The notes under the pieces: model-generated
Databases searched by the model: none
Told to the model about the DNA's origin: nothing
The model's input: the letters and a program-made list of their open reading frames with translations, nothing else
Shown: positions 28,956 to 62,286 of the stretch, in pieces
Layout of the letters: each line of letters opens with the position of its first letter
Position numbering within the stretch: the stretch's first letter is position 1
From: Cystobasidiomycetes sp. EMM_F5
Lineage: Eukaryota
Length of the DNA stretch: 64,000 bases
Reading direction: 5' to 3'
Assembly: GCA_051047955.1 (NCBI GenBank)
Contig: JBPGPT010000016.1
Location: 186,001 to 250,000, forward strand
Position numbers and translations under genes: made by a program

Positions 28956-29800
28956 ATGGGCAAGTCGCAGTCAAAGCTCAGCCAAGAGCAAATCACCGAA
29001 CTCGAACGCAACACGCGATGTGCGTCAGTCTGTAGACGGACATGGCCATAGCGGAACTGAATATGTGAGACTACTGCCACAGTCGACAGGAAGGAGCTCA
29101 AGCAATGGTACAAGGGTTTCGTGCGGTATGGTGTCGACATTCGTCTAGCACGACGGAGATCCGCAGCCAGCTAAATCATAACCACAGAGACTGCCCATCC
29201 GGCCAGCTTGACAAGGCATCATTCGCAAAGATATACTCGCAATTCTTCCCGTATGCTGTTTGCGCTGTAGCTATACTCGTGCACTCGCTGACCCCTATCT
29301 CGTTTACCCCTTGTGACGGATGTTGGCGCAAACAACAGCTTTGGAGACCCATCGACGTTTGCAAACTACGTTTTCGACGTATTTGACAAGGATCGTAACG
29401 GTTCTATCGACTTTCGCGAGTTTGTAACGGCACTATCTGTGACAAGCCGTGGCGACCTGGACGACAAGCTGAAGTGTAAGACGTCAAGCGGAGTCGCAAG
29501 GATCCCCTGCTGACATTGTCTGCGTCGCATTTAGGGGCATTTCAACTCTATGATATCGACGGTGACGGCTCAATCACCTATGACGAAATGCTGGCCATCG
29601 TCTCGAGCATATACAGAATGACCGGCGCCATGGTCAAATTGCCAGATGACGAGGCAACTCCTGAACAACGCGTCAACAAGATATTTGAAGCTATGGATAT
29701 CGATAAGAACAAATCGTTATCGTTCGAGGAGTTTTGCGAGGGTTCCAAGAAGGATCCGACAATCGTGCAGGCTCTTTCCCTGTACGATGGTCTGGTCTAG
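28956..29800 (+). CDS. NCS1: Neuronal calcium sensor / frequenin (myristoylated EF-hand protein)
   Basis: [70 protein letters not shown]. Confidence 0.96.
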
Positions 29801-32638: not shown

Positions 32639-32870
32639 ATCCTATCTGGCCTTTTGGCTTAGATCAAGTGTAGTATCTGTTCTTTAAAGGTTAGTTAGAT
32701 GTACCGCGTTTTGCAAGTTCGAAACTGATCAAGATCCGATCGTAGAGTAATTTCTTTAATGTTGGCATAGCCAGCTTTATAAATTACCTTATCTTTACCG
32801 CCTCCGTTGAGCCCAGTGCTTGCACTAGTTCTTCGGACGATGGCCCCCGCATTACACTCCTGCGTTGGCT
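32639..32870 (+). ncRNA. U2: U2 spliceosomal snRNA, intron-containing
   Basis: GGCCTTTTGGCTTAGATCAAGTGTAGTATCTGTTCTT matches the universally conserved U2 5' region, including the branch-point recognition sequence GTAGTA (32670-32675). Stems IIa, IIb, IIc, III and IV can be drawn after removing 32690-32745. The 3' end is approximate. Confidence 0.93.
32690..32745 (+). other. Spliceosomal (mRNA-type) intron within U2 snRNA
   Basis: GTTAGT donor, CTGAT branch motif at 32725-32729, TAG acceptor, 56 nt. Removal restores stem-loop IIa: TTAAAG-AGTAATTT-CTTTAA. Confidence 0.88.
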
Positions 32871-33323
32871 GTCAGGGCTTCCCACTCGTTTTGCCGGGCT
32901 TTTTATGCCTCCTGTTTTACGAAAGTTTTGTGATTCGCTGAGACAACCTGTCAGTCAGGACTCATGTAGGTATCAGAGTGTGGGATTCCCGGCTTTATCG
33001 CATTTTGTTACAGCACAATTTGAGAGGCGGCCAGCGGAAATGGTTTCATCTTGTCGCTGCTAGAACCTTACGTTACTGTGTCCAAACCGCCCTCTGAACC
33101 TCAATGAGGAGGGCGAGGTGTTGTCCGAGTCAGGTACCGTTGAGGCCTTTCAAGGGCAACGATACAGAGCAGTTTGGGCACCGTTAGAGCTGCTCATTCA
33201 GCTTCTTCCTCAGTCCTGGAGCATCAGCGATTCGCGTATACACACCTCGTACTATCGCCTGTTGGCGTTTTGGTCGGTGTATATATATGCTCAAGTCGAG
33301 CTTTCCTTCAACATAACACAAAC

Positions 33324-33396
33324 GTTTCGTTAGCTCAAATGGTAGAGCGCGCGCCTAGTAAGCGCGAGGTAATGAGATCGATGCTCATACGAAACA
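33324..33396 (+). tRNA. tRNA-Thr(AGT)
   Basis: 73-nt cloverleaf: acceptor GTTTCGT/ACGAAAC, D stem GCTC/GAGC, anticodon arm CGCGC-CTAGTAA-GCGCG, T arm ATGAG-ATCGATG-CTCAT. Upstream TATA and downstream T runs. Confidence 0.92.
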
Positions 33397-33858
33397 GCCT
33401 CTGTTTTGGCCAACATCCCTTTTTTTTTCGGCTGTCTGCATTCTTCTTCTGAAACCCACATCATCTATTGTCGAGCCGCGCTTCCATCACTATCTTCTTT
33501 GTCCACGCCAACAACGGCACTGCTTTCGCATTAGGCCTTTGCCATTGCCTGTGCTTTGGCTATGAAAGACGCTGCTCTCATGTGGAATGACGTGGACCTT
33601 CGGCCACTGTTATCGATGGAAATCTAGACGATACACTCGCTATGATCTCCAAACACCATGCCATTGTTCCTATTTTTACGTTTCTGCGTATACGCGTCGC
33701 TGCGGCCGAAGCGTAAAGTCCGACAGGCACACGTGTGCCTTCGGCGATGACTTAAGGCGCTCTGTCCCGCCCGATAGATCCGTAACGCACGCCAACCGAA
33801 TAAAAGGGGGCTCATTGTCAGGCTCCTCTCCCTCCTTCACAGTACAACACACACGACC

Positions 33859-45067: not shown

Positions 45068-47092
45068 ATGTCTGCTCCCGTCAAGCGACGCTTCGTTGGT
45101 CGGGCTCCGGGCACGACTGCTCCAAGTGCAAACTCGAATGGCCCTAAAACTGCCTCGCAACCCGTCTTCAACCAGATCCCGCAGGACATCCTCAACGATG
45201 GACTGCTCAACGCAGCTATAGGAGCACTGCTGCCGTCCAATTACAGCTTCGAGGTGCACAAGACAATCTGGCATGTGCGAAAATATAGCATTCAGCGTGT
45301 AGCGTTGCAGGTGGGGAGCCCTTGTATGGAGCAGGACACTGCGGACACTTAGATACTGATTGTCCTTATTGGCATGTCATACCATGTCGTACCAGATGCC
45401 AGAAGGGCTGGCTATGTTTGCGACTTCGCTGGCAGATTTGGTCGAGCGATTTACTGATGCAGAGTCAGTCAATAGCATTGGAATACGAGTGTATATCTGA
45501 CTGAAATTCCACAGAGCAGTCATATTGGCTGATGTGACCTATGGAGCGTGCTGCGTTGACGATTACACGGCAAAAGCACTCGGATGTGACATGCTCGTCC
45601 ACTATGGACACAGTTGTCTCAGTAAGTCGATCCTTGTGTCTCGTCCTCCCGCTTCCACGTCCCACTTCCCCCTTTTCACGATGAATAAAAAACATATGGT
45701 TCGATTATACGAAGCCAACGGCTCAAGAACGGAAACTGTTTCGAACTCCTACTAGAGTTCTCAGTCTGATTACCACTTTCCACACCCTCGTTGTGTGTCG
45801 CAACTCGCAGCGTGACTGACAACTGCCGTTCTCCAGTTCCGATCGACACTACATCCATCCGATGTTTGTATGTCTTTGTTGAAATTTCAGTGGATACCGA
45901 GCATCTCCTCGACACGATACGTCTCAACTTTCCTCCCTGTCTCCCATCAACATCGCAAGTGCGAATGAAGGGAGGTAATATGCGACAAGATCAACCGGCA
46001 ATTGCCATCGAGGCAGATGCTGTCGAGCCAGAACATGTGATTCCCGACGACGAGGTAATTACAAACTTCCACATGGCGGTCGTAGGGACCGTGCAATTTT
46101 TATCTGCTGTGCATGGCTTGAAAGAAGATTTGGAGAACCCTACACTGGCTGAAAAGCCATTTACAAGCCGCCTTGCAATCACGGGCATCACCCAAGATCA
46201 GTCTGCTCCCGCTGCGCCACAGCGCAAGCGGACTAAATGGCAAGTCACCATACCGCAAGTGAAGCCGCTGTCCCCAGGCGAAATACTGGGCTGTACTGCA
46301 CCTCGCTTGCCAAGCAATGTCGATGCCCTGCTTTACGTAGGCGATGGGCGATTCCACCTAGAAAGCGTCATGATTGCGAATCCCTCCGTCCCTGCGTATC
46401 GTTATGATCCGTACAGCAAACGCTTGACGAGAGAGGAGTATGATCACGGAGATATGCGAAAATTGAGAGCGGATGCCATTGCACAGGCCAAGAAGACCCT
46501 TCCGAGTCCGCAGAAACAAGCTTCCGAGCCATTGACTACGGATCAAGGTGGCTTGAGCTGGGCTGTCGTTCTGGGCACTCTTGGGAGACAAGGCTCACTA
46601 GCCGTCTTGTCATCCATCACCTCTTGTCTTCCCCTATCATCTACGATCCCGATCCTCCTATCTGAGTTATCACCAGCAAAATTGAGTTTGCTTGGACCGC
46701 AAGTTGGAGCATACGTACAAACTTCTTGTCCGAGGTTGAGTATTGACTGGGGTGCAGCCTTCGACAAGCCTCTGCTCAGTCCGTATGAGGCCAACGTAGT
46801 CTTCGGCAAAGCTCAGTCTCGCTGGGCAGCCCAAATACCTTCTCTGGATAGCGTTAGAGCGCCTCCTGGATACTCGGATCAGCCGTCTACGTCAGCAGCC
46901 CAGATGTCGCCAGATACAGATCCGCAAGAATATCCCATGGACTTTTACGCTGATTCATCTCTCGGTCGATGGACACCTAGGTGGCATATCGGACAAGCTG
47001 ATCGGGAGCGCAAGGAGCGACAACGATCACGCGCACTCGAACGTGAAAGGGCTGTCCTTAAGGCATCGCCCGTGCAGACAGCCGCGGCGTAG
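45068..47092 (+). CDS. DPH1: Diphthamide biosynthesis protein 1
   Basis: [89 protein letters not shown]. Confidence 0.97.
45678..45769 (+). ncRNA. Putative intronic box C/D snoRNA in DPH1 intron
   Basis: Variant C box ACGATGA (45678-45684), D box CTGA (45766-45769), 92 nt long, inside a 215-nt intron. ATGGTTCGATTA (45696-45707) is complementary to the conserved LSU rRNA motif TAATCGAACCAT. Confidence 0.65.
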
Positions 47093-60366: not shown

Positions 60367-62286
60367 ATGAATCAGTATAATCACTTGGATCTCGACATCG
60401 CGAGCTTGCTAATGTAAGGATGCTCATTATTCGCTTGTGGTATCACGACAGGCTGACAGTGGAGTCACTTCGGCTGTAATCTTTCTTGCCCATCCAGCCA
60501 TGCCGACGGCGGATCGGACGAATTGGCCGTAGGAGTTCCCATAAGGTGCTTTGCTGCTCTGGTGATTAGATACGCTGTGCTTACGGGCCACTTAGTGTTT
60601 CTACAACATTTCGCCACGCTCGTCCGATAGAGAAGGCACGTCCTGCAACGAACGGTACGAGCTCGAGTACAGGCCTACTGCATCCGAGCGAGCCGGAAGG
60701 CTTCGATTCGTATACCGAAGGAGGACCCAAGACCAGCTGGGATCCAGCCGACCCGAAACGACATATTTATTCGAGATATACACAACCCACTCTAACGAGA
60801 GCTGAAAAGGTTCTCGGCGCCTTAACAGTATGCTTAACTTTTCTGTCCACTCGTCACTTTGGACCATCTTACTCATTCGTATAAGTAGCACGGTCATGCC
60901 CTTGCCTTTGGCTCGGGCCTTTCAGTACGTTTTGTAATTGAGGGCTCGGCTCTATTTGCCTGTCACTAATGCGCTTCCTTGACTCGCAGGCGATCTACGC
61001 AGTTCTATTACATTTTCAACCAGAAGTCATTGCAATTTCAGCAGGTTACCACGGATCCCACGAAACCATAGCTGTATACAGGAGGACGCGACCAGGCGTG
61101 CAAATTATAGACCTTGACGATGATTACACGCAGTACAAAGACAAGAAGCTATTGTGCTGGTGTGAGACACCGGTCAATCCTGACGGTCTTTGCCGGGATC
61201 TAGCAAAATGTGAGCCAACAGAGTAGGGTTCGCCATAATGGGTCAAGAGGCTAAAAATGTGCAAATGGAAGACGTCAAAAAGACACGGGAGGTTACAAAC
61301 GGCAAGATTGCAGTCGACGCTACATTTGGTCCACCTCCGTTACAGAATCCGTTCGAATTTGGAGTTGACCTGGTTATGCATAGCGGTACAAAGTGAGATG
61401 GGGACATTGTATCACCAGACCGTTGACTGAAGCCACGTCGCCTACGTAGGTACTTTTCCGGTCATTCGGACGCGCTCATTGGCGTTCTGGTCACGGAGGA
61501 TTCCTCAGAGTGGCAGAAGGTAGGGTTTCCATCTTTGTAAATGATCGCATGACGATCGGGCTCACTGCAAATCTAGCTATGGGAAATACGCACATTCACG
61601 GGAATGGTGCCAGGGTCACTTGAGACATGGCTGATTCTGCGATCATTGAGGACTGTCACTCTGGTAGGTGACGCGCAGACTCGCAACAGGGTCCGAAGTG
61701 ACGCAAAGTACATCTGCAGCGAGTCAAGCGTCAGTCCGAGACAGCAACGGCGTTAGCTCAGTGGCTCTATGAGGTCGCGTTGCACACTACCTCGAGTAAG
61801 CAAACGTACGACGGCTGCGTTAGTGGAGTGCTTGCGAGTGTGTCGCATGCTGCATTGCAAGGCAAATCCAAGGGAGCATTCGATCCGCTTGGCGGCGAGA
61901 AGCCTCTAATGACTGGTGGCCCAGCCTGTTTTGCGATAATGATGCAAAATTCCGAACAAGCTCAATGGCTGCCTCATGAGATGAAAATAATGGTGGTGAG
62001 TAATGCTGATCCACAGGAGATAAGAGAGCATGGACCGCATCTGACGAGTGTGATGCAGCCTGCTACTTCTCTTGGTGGAGTTGAATCTCTCATCGAATAC
62101 CGCCTGCAATCTGATGCAGCAGCGGATCCACGTTTGAGTAAGTTGCATGAGCCCAAGAGCGTTCAAAGTGTCTGATCCAAAGCACGACCAGTACGACTAA
62201 GTATTGGTCTTGAGGACTTAGAAGACTTGAAGGAGGACTTCAGGCGTGCTTTCAAAGCCGTCCAGCACCGCGGAGTGGAGACCTAG
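60367..62286 (+). CDS. Cys/Met-metabolism PLP-dependent enzyme (cystathionine gamma-synthase / beta-lyase-like), multi-exon
   Basis: IHAD, IS-VSTTF, HIYSRYTQP, GYHGSH, CETPVNP, VDATFGPP, PLP-lysine HSGTK-YFSGHSD, WLILRSLRT, ATSLGGVESLIE, RLSIGLED. Confidence 0.9.

Follow-up and report, generated by a model that had tools for sequence, protein, structure and literature searches.

A candidate intronic small nucleolar RNA of the box C/D type in DPH1 of Cystobasidiomycetes sp. EMM_F5 with two-part complementarity to a conserved stretch of large-subunit rRNA

The DPH1 gene of Cystobasidiomycetes sp. EMM_F5 contains three introns, and the third of these raises the question of whether it also encodes a small nucleolar RNA (snoRNA). 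The gene lies in a stretch of 64,000 nucleotides (nt) of contig JBPGPT010000016.1 (positions 186,001 to 250,000, forward strand), hereafter called the window. From the letters of this window alone, the original prediction had proposed that the intron hides a box C/D snoRNA which pairs with two adjacent segments of large-subunit ribosomal RNA (LSU rRNA). In our analysis, this proposal is partly supported: the motifs, their geometry, the complementarity and the rarity of the arrangement speak for it, while the boxes are imperfect and no Rfam family matches. Judged from these features, the intron probably, if far from certainly, encodes an unannotated box C/D snoRNA with a guide on the D′ side and an additional accessory pairing element.

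Inspection of the sequence located every motif of the original prediction where it had been reported (Table 1). The candidate is in sense orientation in intron 3, which at 215 nt exceeds the other two DPH1 introns (85 and 51 nt). Its C box lies 56 nt from the 5′ splice site and its D box 67 nt from the 3′ one, and the span over the two boxes, both included, is 92 nt. The box C-like ACGAUGA keeps both GA dinucleotides. The 24 nt between the C box and the D′-like ACGA are made up of an 11-nt A-rich spacer, the 12-mer guide and one unpaired nt, and the duplex formed by this first antisense element occupies positions 2–13 upstream of ACGA. Past ACGA follow 24 nt with a small hairpin, the possible split C′ box, 21 nt that hold the 8-nt second element, and then CUGA. 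An antisense element of at least 10 nt ending 1–2 nt ahead of a D or D′ box is found only when ACGA is taken as D′. In fungal C/D snoRNAs, whose prime boxes are variable in general, the variability of the D′ box amounts to 15–45% per position (PMC5824354), and split C′ boxes have been reported as functional (PMC3116282). Both the minimum free energy (MFE) and the centroid folds draw the 6-bp hairpin at about 45727–45742; neither draws the AGCC/GGCU stem, and the two folds pair different bases nearby. The order of the elements and the predicted length of about 100 nt are typical of a box C/D snoRNA, 90% of the fungal representatives falling within 80–135 nt with a median of 93 nt; the predicted mature ends were set by the 5-nt trimming rule beyond the boxes described in the same survey (PMC5824354).

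The rRNA side of the interaction was analyzed with stand-in eukaryotic LSU rRNAs, taken from ribosomal DNA (rDNA) that contaminates prokaryote assemblies, in place of the species' own rRNA. The 26-mer which the original prediction had quoted as a conserved eukaryotic stretch was found exactly at no fewer than 45 loci of such rDNA, of which about 320 stretches are estimated to exist, and complete LSU rRNAs were placed by Rfam in three contigs (L022, L023 and L043). All three complete stand-ins contain the 26-mer without a mismatch and carry GACTAATCGAACCATCTAGTAGCTGG, while differing widely elsewhere. The claimed two-part complementarity was likewise confirmed, with the 12-mer perfectly antisense to UAAUCGAACCAU and the 8-mer perfectly antisense to UCUAGUAG. 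These two targets abut and share one U, and the two elements together cover 19 contiguous rRNA nt with a combined energy of about −25 kcal/mol. An inserted antisense rDNA fragment as the source of the two matches was ruled out, because the elements stand in the reverse order to that of contiguous antisense rDNA.

How often such an arrangement arises by chance was evaluated with a scanner that demands a loose C box, an antisense match within 21 nt to rRNA conserved between the stand-ins, and CTGA 45–140 nt further on. Over both strands of the window, the DPH1 intron candidate was the only match, and with a strict RTGATGA no candidate was found anywhere in the window. When 300 random windows were drawn with matching dinucleotide statistics, at least one loose C box with a 12-mer to conserved rRNA and CTGA was present in 5.3% of them; the proportion rose to 31% when any rRNA 12-mer was allowed, and to 74% with 10-mers. 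An abutting 8-mer occurred in 0.92% of 200,000 random 53-nt segments, or in 3.2% if it was allowed anywhere within 25 nt. The conjunction of elements, in sense within one long intron, is thus well beyond chance, while no single element is. The product of these chance factors is far below the plausible prior for a snoRNA in a fungal intron of fourfold excess length, although the factors are not fully independent of the post hoc choice of features by the earlier reader.

Table 1. Features of the DPH1 gene, of the snoRNA candidate in its third intron and of the predicted rRNA target (window coordinates).
Feature	Position	Strand	Basis or details
DPH1 exon 1, from ATG	45069–45310	+	Sequence; tblastn with P0004, P0017, P0019
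DPH1 intron 1	45311–45395	+	85 nt
DPH1 exon 2	45396–45463	+	Sequence; tblastn
DPH1 intron 2	45464–45514	+	51 nt
DPH1 exon 3, ending ...VHYGHSCL	45515–45621	+	Sequence; tblastn
DPH1 intron 3, host of the candidate, GTAAGT...CAG	45622–45836	+	215 nt; sequence; tblastn
Predicted mature box C/D RNA	45673–45774	+	About 100 nt; ends placed ~5 nt beyond the boxes
Box C-like ACGAUGA (DNA ACGATGA)	45678–45684	+	6/7 positions of RUGAUGA; C for U at position 2
Antisense element 1, ATGGTTCGATTA	45696–45707	+	12 consecutive Watson-Crick pairs with LSU rRNA UAAUCGAACCAU; −15.2 kcal/mol
D′-like ACGA	45709–45712	+	2/4 positions match; GA kept, positions 1 and 2 deviate; putative function
Spacer from D′ to the second region	45713–45742	+	Two small hairpins: AGCC/GGCU; 6-bp stem at ~45727–45742
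Possible split C′ box, UGUUUCGA	45737–45744	+	Speculative; sole C′ candidate
Hairpin GAACUC-CUACUA-GAGUUC	45743–45760	+	In MFE and centroid folds
Antisense element 2, CTACTAGA	45749–45756	+	8 pairs with rRNA UCUAGUAG; −9.6 kcal/mol; ends 10 nt ahead of box D
Box D CUGA (DNA CTGA)	45766–45769	+	81 nt past the end of box C
Branch-site-like CUGAC	45815–45819	+	17 nt from the 3′ splice site; 46 nt past box D
DPH1 exon 4, including the stop codon	45837–47092	+	PF01866; tblastn
25S rRNA around the candidate target nucleotide			UAAUCGAACCAUCUAGUAG

If the candidate is a snoRNA, the third intron would be spliced out and then debranched, and exonucleases would trim it back to the particle assembled on box C (ACGAUGA) and box D (CUGA). 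The 5′ antisense element would then pair over 12 bp with the universally conserved stretch in domain II of the LSU rRNA, and, with the degenerate D′ box 1 nt downstream, fibrillarin would methylate the U of UAAUCG. The 8-nt element may pair with the abutting rRNA and stabilize the interaction while itself directing no methylation. Since this second element ends 10 nt upstream of CUGA, it is out of register as a box D guide, and it is here read as accessory pairing; the role of the hairpin which presents it had been assigned earlier from sequence. Of the proposed pairing with two adjacent rRNA segments, the complementarity stands and has published precedent, whereas a second, in-register guide ahead of box D does not emerge.

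The original prediction had left the target nucleotide uncertain on account of the degenerate D′ box. With ACGA as D′, the fifth-nucleotide rule points to the U in UAAUCG, a nucleotide that lies two nt 5′ of Gm805; this register gives neither Gm805 nor Am807 nor Am817. We take this nucleotide to be U803 in yeast numbering; the yeast numbers were placed by the sole local fit of G, A and A at spacings of +2 and +12, and comparison with more distant sites yielded no confirmation, the stand-in rRNAs containing indels. In yeast, the same stretch carries Gm805 (guided by snR39b), Am807 (snR39/snR59) and Am817 (snR60), and it is a snoRNA hot spot in which the pairing of four snoRNAs overlaps and from which their release needs helicases (PMC8053091).

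Several observations weigh against the snoRNA reading. The 12-mer match alone is at chance level. The 12-mer itself occurs once in the window, and perfect antisense matches of at least 12 nt to one set of stand-in rRNAs are found at 39 window sites (24 on the + strand and 15 on the − strand), near the expected number of about 20 k-mer positions for each strand, and a C-like box within 25 nt upstream accompanies just 1 of the 39. The excerpt of PMC11542601 with its comparative table does not list the predicted target U as a 2′-O-methyl site of plants, human or yeast; the row for plant Um803/804 is followed there by that for Gm805, with nothing in between. By the offset of that table, the plant row falls at about yeast 794, hence not at the target of the candidate. 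Likewise, in the excerpts of the literature on Um803, U803, Um1507 and U1507 of 25S/28S rRNA, only plant Um803 came up, a different nucleotide. Targeting of G805 or A807 would require a box that begins at 45707 (AUAC) or 45705 (UUAU), within the duplex.

The boxes and the fold add to these reservations. Box C has a C at position 2, where the consensus U is the protruding, flipped-out nucleotide of the kink-turn to which Snu13 binds. For fungi, a nearly perfect fit of C boxes to the consensus has been reported (PMC5824354). The D′ box is off at two of its four positions, and no convincing C′ box was found within the candidate apart from the speculative split UGUUUCGA. The flanks of boxes C and D lack complementarity and form no terminal stem, and in the MFE fold box C is itself paired to the sequence ahead of box D; such a stem is not obligatory, since none is predicted for over 40% of fungal C/D snoRNAs (PMC5824354). 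The stability of the fold does not exceed that of shuffled sequences, neither for 121 nt (z of −0.13) nor for the whole intron (z of −1.09). The Rfam search, which the original prediction had named as a check, matched the candidate to no family. At gathering thresholds, the whole window returned only U2 and a tRNA and no snoRNA family, and a 351-nt query at E up to 10 returned nothing but a flavivirus hairpin. With a 113-nt query, SNORD27 (15.0 bits, gathering 52), snoU43 (12.5 bits, gathering 45) and the same flavivirus hairpin appeared; all of these are far under gathering and were taken as noise. The snoU43 alignment (45678–45773, + strand, E of 9.9), treated in the same way, matches up box C, the A-rich spacer, UAUGGUU.GA, ACUAG.G and CUGAUU. 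Finally, the sequence ahead of box D matches no target common to the stand-in rRNAs, nor one in the U2 RNA or the tRNA-Thr of the window.

One alternative is chance: the intron would be long but ordinary, a C-like heptamer, CTGA and two short antisense matches to rRNA would merely coincide in it, and no stable RNA would arise. We regard this as unlikely. Twelve-nt antisense matches to rRNA are frequent, as the 39 sites attest, and loose C boxes with any rRNA 12-mer and CTGA turn up in 31% of the random windows. The imperfect boxes, the missing terminal stem, the ordinary fold, the lack of an Rfam family and a predicted target outside the known sites all fit coincidence, and the features were chosen post hoc by a reader in search of them. 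However, the proportion drops to 5.3% of windows once the match is restricted to conserved rRNA, the abutting second element multiplies this by a further 0.9–3.2%, and the site must also land in sense in 215 of 128,000 strand-positions. In addition, the duplex stops exactly 1 nt ahead of NNGA, and its target is a known snoRNA hot spot. Three other antisense rRNA matches in the window, of 13–15 nt, are longer than the 12-mer of the candidate (61422–61436 on the − strand, 29644–29656 on the + strand and 33774–33786 on the − strand); they have no nearby C box or in-register D box and illustrate the chance level.

Two further explanations accept a snoRNA ancestry or a snoRNA particle without a functional methylation guide. 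The candidate may be a decaying, once-functional snoRNA that no longer accumulates or methylates, its boxes having begun to degenerate (a U-to-C change in box C and a mutated D′) with the antisense elements still intact; we consider this distinctly unlikely. In its favour, perfect 12-nt and 8-nt antisense elements stand next to defective-looking boxes, none of the known sites nearby falls in register, and snoRNA families in fungi are reported to be often lost and rearranged, with the guide for Am817 of clan CD_5 inferred to have been lost in Basidiomycota (PMC5824354). Against it, the absence of any mismatch from both antisense elements argues for ongoing selection; box D is intact, as are the GA dinucleotides of box C and D′; and the missing stem has a parallel in the more than 40% of genuine fungal C/D snoRNAs for which none is predicted (PMC5824354). 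It is also conceivable, and in our view improbable, that the RNA acts as a non-methylating box C/D chaperone whose small nucleolar ribonucleoprotein (snoRNP) clamps the 19 contiguous rRNA nt to steer folding or to time the access of other guides. This idea was raised as an alternative in the original prediction. The continuous coverage at about −25 kcal/mol, the degenerate D′ box, the predicted target outside known sites, the contest of four helicase-dependent snoRNAs over the yeast stretch (PMC8053091) and the existence of box C/D chaperones such as snR190 (PMC11879421) agree with it, but nothing specific favours chaperoning over methylation. Moreover, a duplex at positions 2–13 before NNGA is standard guide geometry, and accessory pairing is common in ordinary methylation guides (PMC3116282). 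Weighed against these alternatives, the D′-guided box C/D snoRNA is the reading that we retain.

Several known snoRNAs of the same rRNA stretch can be set beside the candidate. Yeast snR39b, the guide for 25S Gm805, is a box C/D RNA whose guide pairs with this stretch, as predicted for the candidate (PMC8053091), and human snR39B has extra pairing adjoining its target (PMC3116282). In contrast to snR39b, the register of the candidate with ACGA as D′ points to the U two nt 5′ of G805 and not to G805 itself. The intron-encoded snR39 and snR59, which guide 25S Am807, act on this stretch as well (PMC8053091, PMC8476143), and yeast snR39 also shows conserved extra pairing beside its target (PMC3116282). 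Their hosts are the RPL7A/RPL7B introns, whereas the host of the candidate is DPH1. Furthermore, snR39 is implied to guide from box D because its C′/D′ motif has no natural guide (PMC3116282), while the guide of the candidate is on the D′ side and A807 is out of register there. For the family of snR39, snR39b and snR59 (CD_47), neither A807 nor G805 falls at the fifth nucleotide upstream of the D or D′ box of the candidate, and no Rfam models other than SNORD27 and snoU43 reached E 10, a result to be read with the coverage of this family by Rfam not established. The position of snR59/snR39 in an RPL7 intron is kept in 82% of fungi, basidiomycetes included (PMC8476143); since the Am807 guide sits in this conserved intron, the DPH1 candidate is more likely an extra RNA on the stretch than an snR59 orthologue.

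Yeast snR60, which belongs to clan CD_5 and guides Am817 from D′ and Gm908 from D, pairs with UCUAGUAG, the segment that the 8-nt element of the candidate matches (PMC8053091, PMC5824354). At 10 nt from box D, however, this element cannot put A817 at the fifth position. For Basidiomycota, loss of the Am817 guide of clan CD_5 has been inferred, and several families seem to be missing (PMC5824354). The closest published counterpart of the second element is the accessory pairing that van Nues et al. described in 2011; this comprises 4–11 bp immediately beside the methylation site, resides mainly in the D′–C′ spacer or the second guide region and not next to D/D′, sometimes overlaps the guide duplex by 1–2 nt, and was reported for snR39, human snR39b and others (PMC3116282). 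The 8-nt element agrees with this description in every listed point. The published elements, in contrast, were backed by conservation across many yeasts and by mutation tests (PMC3116282), while the candidate is known from a single sequence. A homologue of U24/snR24 was our first guess for the identity of the candidate and was dropped, since the targets of that snoRNA, C1437, A1449 and G1450, lie in another rRNA stretch.

The host gene itself is well defined. Its downstream (fourth) exon matches Pfam PF01866 (diphthamide synthesis) with an E of 7.6e-56, and the four exons were delimited by tblastn with three homologues (P0004, P0017 and P0019), whose alignments cross the junction of intron 3 without a protein gap; splicing restores the protein sequence there. 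The best named relatives of the DPH1 protein, at about 50% identity, come from Pucciniomycotina and Ustilaginomycotina, and closer homologues with 54–65% identity were seen as proteins, the nearest of them (P0002, P0005 and P0012) at 60–65%. The length of 215 nt claimed for the intron was borne out by its sequence, from GTAAGT to CAG, and by tblastn, but the accompanying statement that most introns here are about 50–60 nt long held only roughly. By a crude rule of splice sites and open frames, which missed intron 3 itself, 15 of 34 unverified candidates measure 47–87 nt and 19 of 34 at least 129 nt. Intron 2, like intron 3, has CTGAC ahead of its 3′ end, a putative branch site.

The 5′ splice-site region of intron 3 (GUAAGUCGAUCC..., 45622–45639) is similar to the rRNA target, and it can form a duplex with the guide region at 45692–45710. 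This duplex has an energy of −15.6 kcal/mol, a value reached by 3.5% of 1000 shuffles, and is present in both the MFE and the centroid folds of the intron. It could set splicing against snoRNP assembly, or it could be a coincidence.

Searches in other DNA and in the literature were also carried out. Metagenome contigs yielded four DPH1 loci. In three of them, at 44% identity, HYGHSCLIPIQ runs on uninterrupted and there is no intron at this place, a further point on the negative side; the fourth covers only residues 292–416 at the C-terminus. Loci of 44% identity are uninformative about close relatives. In five assemblies with eukaryotic rDNA (G001–G005), real guides for the same rRNA site were sought, and none of the 30 of 37 10-mer matches examined was snoRNA-like: 6 were antisense rDNA, and 1 had RTGATGA at most 50 nt upstream within a repetitive stretch. 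Literature excerpts for a snoRNA with CGAUGA contained no box C variant among the matches listed. A search of the literature on basidiomycete snoRNAs and introns retrieved no DPH1-hosted snoRNA, with 0 occurrences of DPH1 or diphthamide in PMC8476143.

Elsewhere in the window, a full-length U2 spliceosomal RNA gene (32639–32880, + strand, 97.4 bits with Rfam) is followed about 440 nt downstream on the same strand by a tRNA-Thr(AGU) gene (33324–33396, + strand), and Rfam placed no rDNA in the window. The eukaryotic rDNA that served as stand-in was met in prokaryote assemblies and metagenome-assembled genomes, for example in contigs L022 (532 kb), L009 (167 kb) and L031 (116 kb). Some of it stands inside long contigs with otherwise prokaryotic-looking parts, and these are likely chimeric or contaminated assemblies.

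Inventories of snoRNAs in Basidiomycota are incomplete, and homology surveys report the apparent loss of whole families (PMC5824354). If the candidate turned out to be unexpressed, it would be a caution that 12-nt antisense matches to rRNA together with loose boxes arise readily. If it is real, wider interest would attach only to its unusual box C and to a target nucleotide that is not a listed site. In its boldest form, which we hold doubtful, the finding would amount to a lineage-specific snoRNP with a non-canonical box C, housed in DPH1, that either methylates a U not modified in yeast, human or plants, two nt from the conserved Gm805/Am807 pair, or clamps 19 nt of rRNA without methylating, in competition with guides of the snR39, snR59 and snR60 type. 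A true snoRNA at this locus would provide an extra guide for a stretch of 25S rRNA that is heavily modified and depends on helicases, and it could add both a new methylation site and a natural box C without the consensus U. It would also tie a gene for the modification of a translation factor to the modification of the ribosome through co-transcription.

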